A stretch of 64,000 nucleotides of DNA from Candidatus Shapirobacteria bacterium. Its GTDB lineage: Bacteria; Patescibacteriota; Microgenomatia; UBA12405; BS750m-G30. The notes beneath the pieces are model-generated. The model saw only the letters and a program-made list of their open reading frames with translations, had not been told where the DNA came from and made no database searches. The stretch is from NCBI GenBank assembly GCA_043817235.1, contig JBDRHA010000011.1:191769-255768 (forward strand), given 5' to 3'. Below, in pieces: positions 4,411-50,782 of the stretch (positions are counted from its first letter, which is position 1; every line of letters begins with the position of its first letter). Both the position numbers and the translations under genes were made by a program.

Positions 4411-4495
4411 TCTTTGTCATTCCCGACTTGATCGGGAATCTATATAATAATTCCCGATGTTGCAAGGGCAGTCAACTCCCGAGGTTGAAGTTTGC
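4411..4495. repeat. composite intergenic repeat: hairpin GTCATTCCCGACTTGATCGGGAAT followed by 36-nt motif TCCCGATGTTGCAAGGGCAGTCAACTCCCGAGGTTG
   Basis: hairpin is near-identical in structure to 22543-22570; the 36-mer recurs exactly at 37843-37878 and partly at 19055-19085. Confidence 0.7.
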
Positions 4496-8352: not shown

Positions 8353-8913
8353 TTAACTTTTTCGGCTAACGTATTCGCCGGTTTCCGCATTGACCACTAT
8401 TTCTTCACCCTTTTTAATAAAAAGAGGAACTTTAACAACCAAGCCATTATCAAGTGTGGCCGGCTTAGTGGCCGCCGAAACTGTATCGCCTCGAACACCC
8501 TTTTCAGTTTTCTCTACCTTAAAAGCAATTTTTTTCGGTAAGCTTATCCCTACTACCTGGCTTTCCCAAAACAAAAGACCGTAAGTTTCACTTGTCTTTA
8601 AATATTTTTCCTCCTCCTTAATAATTTTTCTTTCCACGCTGATCTGGTCGAAGCTTCCAGGATTCATAAAGACTGCTTGAAAACCATCAAAATATAAAAA
8701 TTGATAGTGCTCATTAGTTACCTCAATTTCTTCCACTTTATCATCTGTAATTAAAGTTTCTTTAATTACTTTGCCGGTTTTTAAATTTTTCAATTTTAAT
8801 CTAGTTACGGCATGGCCACGGCCCGGATTAAAAAATTCTTTAGCCACGATTACCACTGGTTCACCTCGCCAGTTTAAAAAAGAGCCTTTGTTTAAGTTTC
8901 CTGCTTTAGTCAT
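8353..8913 (-). CDS. efp: elongation factor P
   Basis: 186 aa, three-domain EF-P with the KPGKGxA-like loop (NPGRGHA) near the N-terminus. Confidence 0.85.
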   Translation of the reverse strand: MTKAGNLNKGSFLNWRGEPVVIVAKEFFNPGRGHAVTRLKLKNLKTGKVIKETLITDDKVEEIEVTNEHYQFLYFDGFQAVFMNPGSFDQISVERKIIKEEEKYLKTSETYGLLFWESQVVGISLPKKIAFKVEKTEKGVRGDTVSAATKPATLDNGLVVKVPLFIKKGEEIVVNAETGEYVSRKS

Positions 8914-8916
8914 TTT

Positions 8917-9660
8917 TCATTCGCCTATCAGTAACTTCAAGCCATATATTACACCCGCTCCTGCCAAAAACAAAGCCAAAGTTAAAAAAGACCTAGCAAT
9001 ATCTTTTTCCTGGCGAATCTCCGGAAGCAAATCACAAGCCGCGATATAAATAAACCCGCCCGCTGCCAGAGGCATTAAGTACGGGATAAAAGCTTGGCTT
9101 TCTTTGGTAAACAGGTAGCCCACTATGCCTCCAAGAACGACAGTTAAAGCGACCAAAAAATTAGCCAAAAGTGCTTTTTTCTTTTGCCAGCCGGAATAAA
9201 GGAGAACCCCGAAATCACCAATCTCTTGAGGAATTTCATGTAAAGCAACCGCTAAAGAAGTGGCTATCCCCAAATTAAAATCAGCACTAAAAGCAGCAGC
9301 AATAATTAACCCATCTAAAAAGTTATGGATACTGTCCCCAATTAAATTTAAGTAGCCAATATTGCGCGCCAGGCACTTATTATCATGACAATGATGATAA
9401 TGAAATATTTTTTCCAAAATCAAGAAACAAAATAAAGAAAAAAAGGTCAGCAAAAAAACTAAATCAGGATCGAGAAATTCTAAAGCCTCGGGCAAAAGGT
9501 GAAAAAAGGCACCAGCTATCAATGCCCCCGCAGAAAAAGAGACTAAGGACAAAATAATTTTATCCAGCAGCTTTTCTTTTATTGCTAAAGTGAAAACACC
9601 AGCCAAAGCTCCCAAGCTAATTAACAAAGTGGAAATTATTACTAAAGCAAAAGTAGACAT
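8917..9660 (-). CDS. ZIP family metal (zinc) transporter
   Basis: multiple TM helices, His-rich HYHHCHD loop, HNFLDG and HEIPQE metal-binding motifs. Confidence 0.8.
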   Translation of the reverse strand: MSTFALVIISTLLISLGALAGVFTLAIKEKLLDKIILSLVSFSAGALIAGAFFHLLPEALEFLDPDLVFLLTFFSLFCFLILEKIFHYHHCHDNKCLARNIGYLNLIGDSIHNFLDGLIIAAAFSADFNLGIATSLAVALHEIPQEIGDFGVLLYSGWQKKKALLANFLVALTVVLGGIVGYLFTKESQAFIPYLMPLAAGGFIYIAACDLLPEIRQEKDIARSFLTLALFLAGAGVIYGLKLLIGE

Positions 9661-21446: not shown

Positions 21447-22424
21447 TTACTTCTTTTTAATTTTTATTTTCAAAAACCGGATAATTAAAACCAGAGGCAG
21501 CCAGACGACAGCGTAAACGCCGAGCCAAATTCCTAAAGTTCCCAAAGAGCGCAAGGAAGCAATTAAAGATCGAGTTGCTTGCTTGAAAATAGCAGCTGGC
21601 CGCCAGGGTTGAGCCGGGGCATAAGGCAAAGAAAGTTCGTCCGTGGAGAGATAAACGGTCACCTTGGCATTTTGAGCGGTTTTTTCTAGATAATCAGCTC
21701 TTCCTTTCAAATTATCAATTTGCTCTTGAATATAAATTATCTGCCGCTGGACCTCCAAAATATCTGCCACCTCCGTAGCCTGGTTTAAAATCTCCTCAAA
21801 TTTAGCTTTTGTTTTTTCTAGGGTGGCTATTCTCGCTTCAATGTCTATATATTGATCAGTCACATCGTGGCCAGTTAAACTTTCGGAAACCACCCGAACG
21901 CCTAGAGAACGATAACTTTCTAAGGCCTCATTAAGCTTATTTTGGGGGATGCGGACTGTCACGCTCCCGGAATCAACCCCCAAAGGGGAATTAAGCTGGG
22001 AATCAACCAGATAACCACCCAAGCCTTCTGATTTAGCAATAACTGCTTTTTGCTGCTCACGCACATTTTTTACTAGCAAAGAAAGCCAGGAGCTCTGCAC
22101 TATTAAACGGTCTTCTACTTCCGGGGCTGGCGCCGCTTCCGGATATAGCCCCCCACGGCCAATACTCGCTTCTTCCAGAGACTGAGAAAGACCAATTTTA
22201 GATGATTCAAAACCGATTAAGTCAGTATTATATTGAGGCAAAGAAGGCGAACTTTTTTTTAGGAGCAAAGCAAACAAAGCAACAATAAGTGTCAATTGCC
22301 AGTTTTTCTTCAGCCAAAAAGTTATTTTGCCCACCGGGATTAAGATAACAAAAACAAAGTCAGGATGCAAATTGCTAGAGCATGCCGTTGCGGTCCGCCA
22401 GTGGCGGAGTATCGGTCCTGTCAT
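21447..22424 (-). CDS. DUF4349-like protein (membrane-anchored, coiled-coil)
   Basis: N-terminal TM, central coiled coil, C-terminal TM; the N-terminal 30 aa of the ORF overlap a repeat element, so the true start is probably near 22320. Confidence 0.45.
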   Translation of the reverse strand: MTGPILRHWRTATACSSNLHPDFVFVILIPVGKITFWLKKNWQLTLIVALFALLLKKSSPSLPQYNTDLIGFESSKIGLSQSLEEASIGRGGLYPEAAPAPEVEDRLIVQSSWLSLLVKNVREQQKAVIAKSEGLGGYLVDSQLNSPLGVDSGSVTVRIPQNKLNEALESYRSLGVRVVSESLTGHDVTDQYIDIEARIATLEKTKAKFEEILNQATEVADILEVQRQIIYIQEQIDNLKGRADYLEKTAQNAKVTVYLSTDELSLPYAPAQPWRPAAIFKQATRSLIASLRSLGTLGIWLGVYAVVWLPLVLIIRFLKIKIKKK

Positions 22425-22425
22425 C

Positions 22426-22573
22426 CTTTGTCATTGCGAGCCCCCGAAACTTCGGGGGGCGTGGCAATCTTCCCAACGAGATTGCTTCGTCCTCCCGATG
22501 GCTAAAAATAACATCGGGACTCCTCGCAATGACACGGTCTCTGTCATCCCGCACTTGATGCGGGATGACAGAG
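22426..22573. repeat. MITE-like element: ~107-bp unit with terminal inverted repeats TGTCATTGCGAG/CTCGCAATGACA and internal hairpins, followed by a 30-nt hairpin CTGTCATCCCGCACTTGATGCGGGATGACAG
   Basis: inverted termini and three internal stem-loops are readable directly; a truncated copy sits at 35921-35990, a related hairpin at 4411-4441 and a related insertion inside the 23S at 29347-29415. Confidence 0.65.
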
Positions 22574-26725: not shown

Positions 26726-27015
26726 AATTCATATTTCTCCTTTCAATATATTATTGACCAAAAAATCAGATTGCTGAGTGTTTAAAGAAAAATCTTGTTC
26801 GGTTTTTAGGTACAGCTTGGCTAAAACCATTGCTGGTCTTACACCGGCTGCCCATACCCAGTAGTCTCCTGGGAACCTAATAATGATTCCTTATCTTGGG
26901 GTGGGCTTCCCGCTTCAGATGCTTTCAGCGGTTATCCTTTGGAAACATAGCTACCCGGCAATGCTCTTGACAGAACAACCGGTACACCAGAGGTTTCCCC
27001 AACTAGGTCCTCTCG

Positions 27016-27772
27016 TCAACGATCCTCCCATTGCTGGGAGGGTTAGACTATATCTTCATCCCCCGAATACTCGGGGGAGCTTGCCTTATTATGGAGGCTT
27101 TAATTTGCTTTATTTATTAAAGATAAAACACATCCTCCATCTCGTCCCGCAGCTGCGGGACTCAGTCGTTAAAGGGGTATAAGACCTCTTTTGAGAAACT
27201 CCTTGCGAACGTATTCGCAATTATATTTCTTTTTGACAGTTGCATAATTTATCGAAGACAATCTATCTGAAAGTTGACAAACTTCCAGAAATTTCTTCGG
27301 CTTTGGTTTTTTTTGCATAATTGAAATTGCCCTAAGCATTATTTCAACCTGCTTTCTCTTAAAAATGATATAAGGGGTCAACTCTTTAAGGGTTGACCCA
27401 ACAGCTTTGTAGCCTTCAATTCTCAGCTCGGTAATATGATCTTTTCTTCTAGAAAGATAACCAATTCCCAGTTTCTTTCTGATCCAAATAAGACCTTTTT
27501 CGTGCCGGGTATCTTGATAAAAACATATTACGGTTTTTACCCGAAAGCCAAAGCTTACCACCTTACGTGGCTTTAACTGAAGCATAATACTTCCGTCGCC
27601 ATATAAAAAACCAGCAATATATGCTTTTTCTTTTCCTGTCATTGTCAAAAAGTCTTTAACCTTCCCTTGGTATTACCCTCTAAGTCACAAGGACCAACGA
27701 GTTTAATTTTAAAGGGCTTCACCAATTTTAGCAAGTGTGACCTTGGCAATTACTTACCAAGGCAGCATTTAT
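27016..27772 (-). mobile_element. self-splicing (group I-like) intron in 23S rRNA carrying a homing endonuclease ORF
   Basis: exon sequence ...CTACAGT | ACGAGAGGACC... is contiguous in E. coli (AGU/ACGAGAGGACC, approx position 2656/2657) but separated here by ~757 nt; boundaries approximate. Confidence 0.75.
27169..27648 (-). CDS. LAGLIDADG family homing endonuclease (intron-encoded)
   Basis: 159 aa; classic LAGLIDADG motif YIAGFLYGDGSI near the N-terminus; lies entirely within the 23S interruption. Confidence 0.85.
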   Translation of the reverse strand: MTMTGKEKAYIAGFLYGDGSIMLQLKPRKVVSFGFRVKTVICFYQDTRHEKGLIWIRKKLGIGYLSRRKDHITELRIEGYKAVGSTLKELTPYIIFKRKQVEIMLRAISIMQKKPKPKKFLEVCQLSDRLSSINYATVKKKYNCEYVRKEFLKRGLIPL

Positions 27773-30760
27773 CTACTGTAGTCAGCTCCCCTCAAGAATC
27801 AGCGGTTACTGCGGATAGAGACCGAGCTGTCTTACGACGCTCTGAACCCAACTAATGCGGCGCTTTAATGGGCGAACAGACCAACCCTTGGCCACTTCTT
27901 CATGGCCAGGATGCGCCAAGTCGACATCGAGGTGCCGAACCGGGCCGTCTATGTGGACTATCGGGCCCGACCAGCCTGTTATCCCCGGGGTAATTTTTAT
28001 CCGTTAAGCCCCATGTTTAACCATCCAAGCATGGGGGATCACTAAGACCTGCTTTCGCATCTCCTCGCCTTGACGGCGGGTGGTATCACCTTAAACTTTT
28101 CCAGTTCAAATGAGTGAAAAAATAAAAGGATTAACCAGCTCGACTTGTAAGTCTCGCAGTTAGGCTAGCTTTTGGCTTTGTCCTTACGGCTCGGTTTCCA
28201 TCCGAGCTAAGCTAACCTTTGTACGCTCGCGTTACCTTTTAGCAAGCGGCTGCCCCAGCCAAACTGACCACCAAACACTGTTCCCGTCCGAGTGTGCATC
28301 GGACTCAGGTAAGACGTAAACTTGATAAAGGGTGGTATTCCACTGGTGGTCCGACGTAAAGTCGGACCTCCCACCTATTCTCGACAGTTACCAAATTCTT
28401 GTCAATGTTAAGTTTCAGTAAAACTCCACGGGGTCTTTTTGTCCTGCAGTAACTAACCGGCATCTTCACCGGTATTTCAATTTCGCCGGATAAAGGGTCG
28501 AGACAGTTGCTCGGTCGTGAAGCCTTTCATACTGGTCTGAACTTACCAGACAATGGACTTCGCTACCTTTGGATCCTTAGAGTTAGGACCGTCGTTCACC
28601 GGGGCTTCGGTTTGAGGCAGTCCAAGTAAACTTGGATACCCCGCTCCTTGACCTTCCGGCACCGGACAGGCTTCAGCCCCTATACTTCCCCTTACGGGTT
28701 TGCAGAGACCTGTGTTTTTGCTAAACAGTCGCCGAGCAATCTTTCGCTGCGTCCCGCCCAAAGGCGGGAAAGGCATCTCCCTAAGTTACGCCTAGCTTTT
28801 TTGCCGAGTTCCTTGACCCTCCTTCTTCCGATCGTTTTAGTTTACTCAACTTGTCCACCTGTGTCGGTTTTCGGTACGAATATTATTTTTTCTCCCAACG
28901 AAGCTTTTCTTGGTATCTGAACCCAGCGGGATTTCCCAAAACAAGTTTGGGATTCCGGCAAGTCTCACTTAAAACGAAATGGCGGATTTGCCTACCACTT
29001 CTGGCTCAACTAACCGATGCGGCAATTTCACTCACCACACCCCACCTCTCCTGATACGTCCCTCCCTTGGTTATAACGAAAAAATAACAGGGCTGGAATA
29101 TTAACCAGCTGTCCATCCACTACTCCCGACGTAACGTCGGGACTTATGTTAGGATCGCCTAACCCTCAGACGACAAACGTTGCTGAGGAAACCTTGGACA
29201 TTCAACGGTCCAGTTTCTCACTGGACTTACGCTACTCATGCCGGCATTCTCGCTCCCGCCAACTCCACTCCGATTCACATCGGAACTTCACTGTAAGCGG
29301 GACGCTCCCCTACCAACCTCGCCTCCTGGGCAAGAAAATCCTAATTTCTAACCCTTTGTCATCCTGAGCATAGCCGAAGGATCTTTTACTCCCAAAGATT
29401 CCTCGACTTCGCTCGGAATGACAAGGCACAATATTATTTAGAATTTCCCTGTCCAAGAGACAAGATTCTCCGTTGTCGGTGGCCTGCTTTAGCCTCGGTA
29501 AATTTTCGGCGCAGCCTATCCATATCGACCAGTGAGCTGTTACGCTTTCTTTAAAGGGTGGCTGCCTCTAAGCCAACCTCCTGGCTGTCTAGGATCGACT
29601 ACCTCCTTCCCCACTTAGCAAGACACTTAGAGACCTTAAACGGGAGTCTGGGTTGTTTCCCTTTCGCCCAACCAGCTTAGCCCGGCTGGACTGACTGCCT
29701 GATTAATTTACCTGGTATTCGGAGTTTGGTTGAACACCGGAGATTGCTCCCCAGATGCTCATCCAGTCGCTCTACCCCCAAGCAAAACAATATCAGGCGC
29801 TATACCAATATATATTTCGGGGAGAACCAGCTATTTCCGAGTTCGATAAGCATATTACCTCTAACCACAGGTCATCCAAAGAGTTTGCAGCCTCAACTGG
29901 TGCGGGCCTCCGGTCGACTTTCATCGACCTTCACCCTGCCCATGGTTAGCTCACTCGGTTTCGGGTATTCCGCCAGCCGCTAAACGCCTTATTCAGACTC
30001 GGTTTCCCTACGCCTTCCCCCGCAACTGCGAGGTTAAACTTGCGACTAAGACGAAAACTCGCCGGCTCATTCTTCAATAGGCACGACATCAGTCCGACGT
30101 AACGTCGGACCTCTGTCTGTTTGTTAGCAAATAGTTTCAGGTTCTATTTCACTCCCCTCCCGGGGTTCTTTTCACCTTTCCCTCACGGTAATATACGCTA
30201 TCGGTCAGCAAGAGTATTTAGCCTTTCCGGATGGCCCCGGAAGATTCCCACGAAGTTTTGCGTGTTCCGTGGTACTCAGGTGCTCTGGCTCAAACTTAAT
30301 CAAATTTCACCTACAGGGCTTTCACCTTCTTTGGCAAGCCATTTCCAGGCTTTTTGGCTATTTTTTCAGCTCAAGACTATCAGAGTCCTACAACCCCCCG
30401 ACGTTACGTCGGGGTTTGGGCTACTCCCTTTTCGCTCACCGCTACTAAGGGAATTATGGTTATTTTCTTTTCCTCTGGGTACTAAGATGTTTCAGTTCCC
30501 CAGGTTATCCCCCCGCAAATGCGGGGTTTCCGAAATTAACTTCGGAAGGGTTGCCCCATTCGGAAACCGCCGGATCATAGGTTGCAGACACCTACCCGAC
30601 GAGTATCGCCGTCTGCCGCGTCCTTCTTCGACTCTTACCGCCAAGGCATCCACTATTTGCCTTACTACAAGATTTTTTCTTTAATATCAACAATCTGATT
30701 CTTTAGTCAATTACTTTCTAATAAGTTGTCAAGGTGCAGCCTGCCTCACCGGCAGGTGGG

Positions 30761-35920: not shown

Positions 35921-35990
35921 TTGTGTCGTTTGTCATTGAGAAATTTTTTGTCATTGCGACCCCGCAGCGGCGGGGGAAGCAATCCCGATG
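35921..35990. repeat. truncated copy of the TTTGTCATTGCGA element (TTTGTCATTGAGA + TTTGTCATTGCGACCCCGCAGCGGCGGGGGAAGCAATCCCGATGG)
   Basis: shares left terminus, GC hairpin, GCAATC and CCCGATGG blocks with 22426-22500. Confidence 0.55.
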
Positions 35991-47405: not shown

Positions 47406-47602
47406 AGTAAGTCATTCTACTAGCGTATTACGGACTTGTCAAGTATTAACTCCCCCGATAAGTTTTTTTTGGTAGAATTTGGAATTAGAATGATTAATTC
47501 GAGTAAACTTTATGATTTATATTTGAAGCTATATAAAAAACACAGTAATCCAGAGAAGTATTGGCCTCAAGTGGTGCTCAAAGAGTAATCTATCTCTCTT
47601 TT

Positions 47603-49026: not shown

Positions 49027-49053
49027 TAGATTATTTTATCATGGCAAAAAAAG

Positions 49054-49127
49054 TGGACGCGCCAGGACTCGAACCTGGGACCTCTTGCTCATAAGGCAAG
49101 CGCTCTCACCGACTGAGCTACGCGTCC
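49054..49127 (-). tRNA. tRNA with anticodon TAT (UAU; tRNA-Ile reading AUA), no encoded CCA
   Basis: manual fold: acceptor GGACGCG/CGCGTCC, D-arm GCTC..GAGC, anticodon stem CTTGC/GCAAG with loop CTTATGA, T-arm CCAGG TTCGAGT CCTGG; 74 nt. Confidence 0.7.

Positions 49128-49314: not shown

Positions 49315-50782
<1,468 letters not shown>

Follow-up and report, generated by a model that had tools for sequence, protein, structure and literature searches.

A REPIN-like doublet of a GTCAT-hairpin repeat at the tip of a helix-45 intervening sequence in the 23S rRNA gene of a Candidatus Shapirobacteria bacterium

Introduction

Where do the extra sequences inside bacterial rRNA genes come from? The classic site of intervening sequences (IVSs) in bacterial 23S rRNA is helix 45 (PMC4990558). 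The IVSs found there have complementary borders, and RNase III cuts them out in, among others, Salmonella, Leptospira and Coxiella (PMC4990558, PMC2801512). Their origin has been unclear since their discovery. According to the account given in PMC4990558, they were suggested in 1990 to be remnants of transposition (Burgin 1990), an idea for which examples with a nameable donor element have been missing. In bacteria of the Candidate Phyla Radiation (CPR), insertions in rRNA are frequent (PMC9297842).

We analysed a 64,000-nt stretch of a Candidatus Shapirobacteria metagenome-assembled genome (contig JBDRHA010000011.1 of assembly GCA_043817235.1, positions 191,769 to 255,768), hereafter the window. 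Helix 45 of its 23S rRNA gene carries a long additional hairpin. A sequence-only reading of this DNA had noted that the ends of the hairpin resemble elements between genes of the same window, and had offered two explanations: a mobile-type repeat had colonised a tolerant site of the 23S rRNA, or the intergenic repeats were derived from an rRNA expansion segment. The question raised by the locus is how a dispersed DNA repeat and an rRNA helix came to share sequence. We propose, with a probability of roughly two in three, that the tip of an older helix-45 IVS in this genome was entered by a REPIN-like doublet, a REPIN being two REP units in inverted arrangement, and that the lengthened IVS would be excised from the transcript.

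Results

The extra sequence is a two-layered extension of helix 45

All of the extra nucleotides fall between positions 1218 and 1219 of the large-subunit (LSU) rRNA model, which correspond to the apical loop of helix 45 (Rfam re-scan of 29150-29650). The rRNA on both sides of the insertion aligns with posterior probabilities near 1. Helix 45 measures 154 nt here and 21 nt in three relatives, leaving about 133 extra nucleotides where the sequence-only reading had counted about 120. That reading had correctly placed the hairpin within the 23S rRNA but had put it slightly too early, between blocks at E. coli positions ~1110-1160; helix 45 lies at E. coli ~1164-1185. Because this is a textbook location for IVSs, the insertion is not unusual in itself. 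A gathering-threshold Rfam scan of 29150-29650 returned the LSU rRNA match only. A group I or group II intron was thus not recognised at the insertion (the real intron of this gene lies at ~27006-27773), and no open reading frame (ORF) is present in it. By its position, its complementary termini of more than 20 bp and its sporadic occurrence, the extra sequence is an IVS.

The 154-nt helix folds on the sense strand into a single hairpin of ~62 bp with a minimum free energy of about -75.2 to -76.0 kcal/mol. A 176-nt stretch containing the whole extension reaches -78.3 kcal/mol (z = -7.7), which none of 200 shuffled sequences equalled. The outer stem of this hairpin, of ~29 bp, contains many G·U pairs and is stable on the rRNA strand only: the whole helix contains 13 G·U pairs on the sense strand (-76.0 kcal/mol) versus 4 on the antisense strand (-47.4 kcal/mol). 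The apical 69 nt, which read TTGTCATCCTGAGC...GCTCGGAATGACAA on the plus strand, form a core with 31-nt arms that are 77% complementary and separated by a 7-nt gap. As RNA, the core folds with -36.3 kcal/mol in the sense direction (z = -7.25; 0 of 200 shuffles as good) and -31.7 kcal/mol in the antisense direction, which bears out the hairpin described earlier. Given the strand asymmetry and its G·U pairs, the outer stem behaves as an RNA-level structure; given its near-equal folding on both strands, the core behaves as a DNA palindrome. The insertion thus has two layers, an old RNA-level outer stem and an apical part, and it is repeat-derived only in these 69 nt.

The core extends the outer helix in register, exactly at the apex between the complementary arms of the outer stem. 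This placement bears on the possibility that a repeat-bearing fragment was misjoined into the 23S rRNA gene during metagenome assembly or binning. Both rRNA genes and palindromic repeats are error-prone in short-read metagenome assembly. Moreover, the arrangement is seen on one contig only, and the sole independent contig, L045 (Logan), spans just the first 207 nt of the 23S rRNA gene. However, a random misjoin would not place the core in register at the exact apex, and the flanking 23S sequence is lineage-specific and collinear on both sides. We consider such an artefact improbable.

Both arms of the core are members of a dispersed repeat family

Each arm contains one 26-nt unit, built as GTC + ATYCY...RGRAT + C. 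On the rRNA-sense strand this unit is GTCATTCCGAGCGAAGTCGAGGAATC, which is identical at all 26 positions to six units on viral contigs (two copies in L070 and one each in L081, L089, L090 and L102). The unit on the antisense strand, GTCATCCTGAGCATAGCCGAAGGATC, departs from the search pattern of the family at position 13 alone, where 50 of 53 viral copies have G. It shares 22 of 26 positions with the intergenic unit GTCATCCTGAGTGTAAGCGAAGGATC of a related contig (L036 9834-9809), and its arm is 91.9% identical over 36 nt to the Phocaeicola plasmid OY725998.1 (blastn). The two arms hold different internally complementary stems, ATTCC/GGAAT versus ATCCT/AGGAT, as would be expected of two independent members of the family and not of one hairpin that evolved in place.

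Besides the IVS core, family units are located at three intergenic sites of the window (Table 1). The window has nine GTCATYSB heads closed by a 5-bp stem, where chance would give 0.56; the highest count among 300 dinucleotide shuffles was 4. Eight of these units are clear and one, at 47411, looks like chance. The pattern TTGTCATYNNGAG has three matches in the window (0.05 expected). The reported resemblance of the hairpin termini to elements at 4416, 22430-22569 and 35950 is thus well founded. The doublet at 22430-22533 is arranged like the IVS core and, as DNA, folds with -35.2 kcal/mol (z = -8.7). A truncated head, TTTGTCATTGAG, lies 19 nt upstream of the unit at 35950.

Truncated GTCAT heads stand directly upstream of complete units at 22420-22427 (TGTCATCC) and 35931-35945 (TTTGTCATTGAGAAA), which suggests decayed copies or nested insertions.

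Beyond the window, three units lie at L036 9809-9910 (also in L037 and L038), between the tRNA-Ala/23S operon and a divergent aldolase gene, in what is presumably the rRNA promoter region. A unit that seemed present in only one of L036 and L037 in fact differed between them by one single-nucleotide polymorphism. The Phocaeicola plasmid, the single blastn match among plasmids, carries a tail-to-tail doublet, GTCATTCTGAGCTTTGCGAAGAATC...GATCCTTCGCTGTGCTCAGGATGAC. No match to the core was obtained by blastn against phage genome records. A scan of IMG/VR with GTCATYCYGAGCNNNGYSRARGRATC recovered 53 units in 41 stretches (L069-L109), whereas by our rough estimate chance would give fewer than one match. 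Positions 6:23 and 8:21 covary over the 53 viral units, supporting the unit hairpin. An inverted partner is located within 130 nt in 9 of 46 distinct viral units (~20%). The consensus 26-nt unit, GTCATYCYGAGCGNAGYCGARGRATC, occurs frequently in the intergenic DNA of GC-rich phage contigs. This subfamily was not found in the searched literature, and no Rfam family covers the repeats, as a search of the intergenic doublet at a permissive E-value returned only noise.

The viral units often share one orientation at distances of a few kb, an example being the four copies in 4.9 kb of L090, and they yield spurious peptides such as VIPSEAEES. More generally, GTCAT units produce spurious ORFs and can confuse the calling of rRNA gene boundaries in CPR genomes.

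Could the likeness be convergent or coincidental, with a hairpin that evolved in place, or could the intergenic repeats descend from an rRNA segment? Inverted termini are present in any long hairpin, similarity between the core and the intergenic copies of the window is limited to ~8-13 nt per end, and blastn-short found no further copy of the core in the window. On the other side, one arm recurs base for base in unrelated viral contigs and the other is a single position off the family pattern. Each arm has its own covarying stem, the same doublet is present on a Bacteroidota plasmid, and the core is found in none of the related 23S rRNA genes described below. An rRNA-segment origin of the repeats, as the sequence-only reading had offered, is also unsupported because the family is far more widespread than the rRNA insertion. 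We therefore give this explanation hardly any weight; as judged from sequence comparison, chance resemblance and an rRNA-segment origin of the repeats are all but excluded.

Related 23S rRNA genes share the outer stem and lack the core

The order S1 - 23S - tRNA-Ala - aldolase is kept in relatives, and their 23S rRNA genes could therefore be reached via the aldolase gene that adjoins the rRNA operon. The aldolase of the window is 100% identical to a Candidatus Shapirobacteria protein, and the homologues that follow it in rank were 60-65% identical. Next to homologues at ~50% identity (P0012 and P0019), the 23S rRNA gene was no longer present. A search of genome contigs with the S1 protein, whose peptide patterns are of low complexity, gave only distant bacteria, and looking up the exact S1 protein gave no match. 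Divergence of the 23S rRNA among the window and its relatives is 4-11%.

None of the five related 23S lineages that we examined has the GTCAT core, which is thus specific to the lineage of the window. In three relatives (L064, L065 and L066), helix 45 is a plain 21-nt helix, GAATTAAAATTTATTTTGATT or a close variant. In L036/L037 and L041-L043, helix 45 is 172-174 nt long with an extension of ~150 nt that is AT-rich and unrelated in sequence to that of the window. Neighbour-joining analysis of gap-free 23S columns gave the tree (window,(L041,(L037,(L065,(L064,L066))))), in which the IVS-bearing lineages are paraphyletic. The simplest reading is therefore that the IVS is ancestral and was cleanly lost in the L064-L066 subclade, as far as the sequences indicate.

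The outer stem fits this history. The window, L037 and L041 share its architecture of ~15 bp with a one-nucleotide bulge and a stem containing AAAUUC:GGAUUU, and compensatory changes are present at several of its pairs between the three IVS-bearing lineages. Each of the three helices has 62 predicted base pairs. The tips of the L037 and L041 IVSs are AT-rich and unrelated to the core of the window.

Further insertions were observed in the relatives. On the minus strand, the 23S rRNA gene of L037 has extra insertions of ~150-170 nt at ~8905-9078 and ~8452-8620, corresponding to positions ~260-275 and 560-583 of the 23S rRNA of the window; the second may be in helix 25. The first carries an AT-rich TTTTCAATGATCAATTTTCAAT motif that is also present in the helix-45 IVS of L041, so AT-rich hairpin repeats may be shared among rRNA insertion sites. 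L064 contains a 23S insertion of ~850 nt (~192-1043), located ~155 nt upstream of the intron site of the window, which is probably a different intron.

Proposed entry of the doublet and probable fate of the extended helix

Our preferred explanation joins these observations as follows. The outer stem would have been inherited from the common ancestor of the clade as an RNA-level IVS. A doublet of the GTCAT repeat would then have entered the apical loop of this pre-existing IVS at the DNA level, a direction and mechanism that we infer. The entry route may have been a hairpin-dependent or single-stranded DNA (ssDNA)-dependent insertion, or recombination with another copy. No target-site duplication, for which the sequence-only reading had suggested looking, is visible at the IVS core, at the doublet at 22430 or at the plasmid doublet. 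This fits hairpin- or ssDNA-type insertion or recombination and proves neither. The earlier proposal that a mobile-type repeat colonised a tolerant 23S site therefore stands as regards the arms, which are family members, and the core, which the five related lineages lack, and it falls short as regards the choice between transposition and recombination. The helix-45 IVS site, the nested structure and the missing target-site duplication had been overlooked. The doublet would persist because helix 45 ends in a solvent-exposed tip on which no functional constraint acts. Once transcribed, it would lengthen the IVS into a ~62-bp duplex. RNase III is expected to remove this duplex while the 50S subunit matures, so that the 23S rRNA would consist of two pieces, one of ~1.2 kb and one of ~1.5 kb. 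A part played by an Ssn-type nuclease would be conjectural.

An alternative with the same origin is that the extended helix 45 stays in the mature ribosome as an expansion segment, the GTCAT doublet being a passive or structural element on the surface of the 50S subunit. The hairpin would form a continuous and very stable coaxial extension of a surface helix, and the ~62 predicted base pairs recur in three IVS lineages despite their different sequences, so that selection on length is possible. In addition, no RNase III gene was seen in the window, and many CPR rRNA insertions have been left unchecked against transcripts (PMC9297842). However, RNase III removes the helix-45 IVSs tested to date, among them those of Salmonella, Leptospira and Coxiella (PMC4990558), and a ~62-bp duplex is an ideal substrate of this enzyme. 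The extension has also been lost in full in three sister lineages and is therefore dispensable. We regard retention as the less likely fate, with about one chance in four.

Several observations weigh against entry of a doublet followed by excision. The arrangement occurs once, in one metagenome-assembled genome. A metagenome-wide scan for a GTCAT...ATGAC core near the conserved GGTAGRGGAGCG found no other 23S rRNA gene with the arrangement; requiring the core 20-50 nt upstream of GGTAGRGGAGCG gave 15 matches, of which 14 were non-rRNA. The event therefore looks rare. A pre-insertion apical loop, empty of the core, was not seen among the relatives in the searched collections, where the nearest relative has 65% aldolase amino-acid identity (~9-11% 23S divergence). 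As for enzymes, searches of the 64-kb window for a GIY-YIG/Ssn gene (regular expressions and phmmer with consensus queries) and for the signature motif of RNase III were negative, both being weak tests. No transposase was detected in the window, though no search was aimed specifically at RAYT genes. The published SRM pattern, HGTCWYN(0-2)YYVSBRHN(0-5)WNVSBRGN(0-2)RNCYNB (Ssn-related motif; see below), has 0 matches on either strand of the window. The related and viral loci did not contain a GIY-YIG-like ORF or an RNase III signature motif either, by equally weak tests.

One match of the metagenome-wide scan, L056, was rejected as its helix-45 IVS consists of CATTGA repeats and does not belong to the GTCAT family. 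At 857-966 of this sequence (JGI Ga0315282_10066021), tandem and inverted CATTGA/GTCATTGA motifs form a long hairpin.

A more far-reaching and rather doubtful possibility is that GTCAT doublets are mobile at present, moving in an ssDNA-dependent manner with an Ssn-type or other nuclease or a transposase, and that they invade hairpin loops of highly transcribed rDNA. If so, such insertions would be a general route for the birth and renewal of bacterial rRNA IVSs. This would be the first IVS with a donor repeat family that is still recognisable, and it would support the 1990 proposal that IVSs are remnants of transposition. Independently of mobility, the locus offers a rare instance in which a dispersed DNA repeat inside an rRNA gene can be traced: its apical 69 nt consist of two inverted units of a repeat that also occurs, base for base, in other DNA, as its sense unit demonstrates. 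With an outer stem that is older and shared and a core that can be traced, the question of IVS origin becomes testable.

The 23S rRNA locus and its surroundings

The initial Rfam call ended the 23S rRNA gene at 27773, ~1 kb early, because a 768-nt group I intron splits the gene (Table 1). An Rfam re-scan of the 3' part placed the intron at LSU model positions ~2683/2693, followed by a second exon that reaches model position 2912, so that the 3' end of the gene is 26799. The Rfam Intron_gpI model matches 27024-27133 (36.4 bits). Within the intron, a 159-aa ORF on the minus strand (27169-27648) matches Pfam LAGLIDADG_1 (E = 4e-6; 28.1 bits, cut-off 23.1) and probably encodes a homing endonuclease.

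A further 23S insertion of 76 nt is located on the minus strand at ~28059-28134, LSU model position ~2387. This AT-rich insertion has a modest fold (z = -1.7) and no relation to the GTCAT family. The S1 gene starts ~70 nt downstream of the 3' exon. We found no 5S rRNA gene after the 23S rRNA gene or elsewhere in the 64-kb window. The 16S rRNA gene (49315-50780, plus strand) is unlinked from the 23S rRNA gene, ~19 kb distant and on the opposite strand. ARAGORN predicted a tRNA-Ile with anticodon TAT at 49053-49127 on the minus strand. Such a tRNA is uncommon in bacteria, where AUA is usually decoded by a lysidine-modified CAU anticodon.

Table 1 Features of the 23S rRNA gene, the helix-45 IVS and the GTCAT-hairpin units in the window
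Feature	Coordinates	Strand	Remarks
23S rRNA gene	26799..30671	minus	Rfam LSU_rRNA_bacteria, 2160 bits
23S exon 1	27774-30671	minus	
Group I intron	~27006-27773	minus	
23S exon 2	26799-27005	minus	
Helix 45 and IVS	29315..29468	minus	154 nt, 23S positions 1204-1357
Outer IVS stem, 5' arm	29438..29468	minus	pairs with 29315-29351
Outer IVS stem, 3' arm	29315..29351	minus	pairs with 29438..29468
Apical core, 69 nt	29356..29424	both strands	two inverted GTCAT-hairpin units, tail to tail (REPIN-like doublet)
Core unit on rRNA-sense strand, GTCATTCCGAGCGAAGTCGAGGAATC	29397..29422	minus	26/26 identity to viral copies
Core unit on antisense strand, GTCATCCTGAGCATAGCCGAAGGATC	29358..29383	plus	family-pattern mismatch only at position 13
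Intergenic copy, GTCATTCCCGACTTGATCGGGAATC	4416..4440	plus	
Intergenic tail-to-tail doublet	22430..22533	22430-22469 plus, 22533-22480 minus	longer units
Perfect palindromic copy, GTCATCCCGCACTTGATGCGGGATGAC	22543..22569	both strands	intergenic
Intergenic copy, GTCATTGCGACCCCGCAGCGGCGGGGGAAGCAATC	35950..35984	plus	

Comparison with known systems

The closest known systems by position are the helix-45 IVSs of Salmonella, Yersinia, Leptospira, Campylobacter and Coxiella, which share with the present IVS the site in the apical loop, the complementary termini and the long stem. The present IVS also resembles them in its sporadic occurrence among close relatives, in the unrelated sequences found at one site and in the RNase III-type duplex that would be expected. 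It differs in having no ORF, in its CPR host, in its nested structure and in its apical part, which is an inverted pair of a dispersed repeat. We found no IVS in the searched literature whose apical part could be identified in this way.

By sequence, the only literature match to the units was Chenal et al. 2025 (PMC11893778), through the NTS sequence that it reports. The NTS of Neisseria, CGTCATTCCCGCGMAVGCGGGAATCYRG, contains the dRS3 repeat and is described there together with the broader Ssn-related motifs (SRM); NTS/SRM hairpins start with CGTCATTCCC, and small GIY-YIG Ssn nucleases bind and cut them as ssDNA and not as RNA (PMC11893778). The same authors liken NTS/SRM to IS elements and REP/RAYT systems (PMC11893778). 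The units described here share with NTS/SRM an oriented (C/T)GTCAT head, an ATTCC...GGAAT hairpin stem and a trailing C. A GTCAT head with an ATTCC/GGAAT-type stem and trailing C is present in the 8 clear window units and the 53 viral copies. Both groups are multi-copy, mainly intergenic and distributed across phyla, including symbiont-like bacteria with small genomes. In contrast, the inner stem and loop is GAGCGNAGYCGA here and CGCGMAVGCG in NTS/SRM, and the published SRM pattern is unmatched in the window. Ssn nucleases belong to the GIY-YIG family cd10448, and the motif typically flanks their genes. As Ssn acts on ssDNA and not on RNA, such a nuclease would bear on the spread of the element and not on rRNA processing.

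By architecture, the units resemble those of REP/REPIN-RAYT systems, which Y1 (RAYT) transposases mobilise: each is a short, imperfectly palindromic sequence whose oriented head is conserved, and it occurs singly or as an inverted doublet. Such doublets form the IVS core and the pair at 22430-22533, and they recur on the Phocaeicola plasmid and among the viral contigs (9 of 46 distinct units). Like REPINs, the doublet folds into a long hairpin, has a short spacer between its units and is accompanied by no target-site duplication. Unlike in REP/RAYT, the head is GTCAT in every copy instead of GTAG, and REPINs are extragenic by definition whereas this doublet lies inside an rRNA gene.

There is a precedent for a palindromic repeat within a structural RNA. 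One of the 526 Rickettsia palindromic elements (RPEs) of R. bellii is in the tmRNA gene (PMC1458961). As in the present case, RPEs are palindromic repeats tolerated in essential genes, at the surface or in non-critical regions. Compared by description only, they differ in being 100-150 bp long and lineage-specific, and here the target is an existing IVS in helix 45. The nemis/Correia elements are likewise miniature hairpin repeats. RNase III cuts the transcribed nemis hairpins of Neisseria, according to the mention of this work in PMC4524435 (De Gregorio 2003), which provides a mechanistic precedent for the processing of a transcribed hairpin. These elements form another sequence family, have TA target duplications and, unlike the present repeat, are not reported in rRNA. 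Taken together, the GTCAT units represent a hairpin subfamily conserved across phyla, with members in CPR bacteria, phage contigs and a Bacteroidota plasmid. We call this family NTS/SRM-like, and REPIN-like in its architecture, as descriptions of likeness and not of membership.

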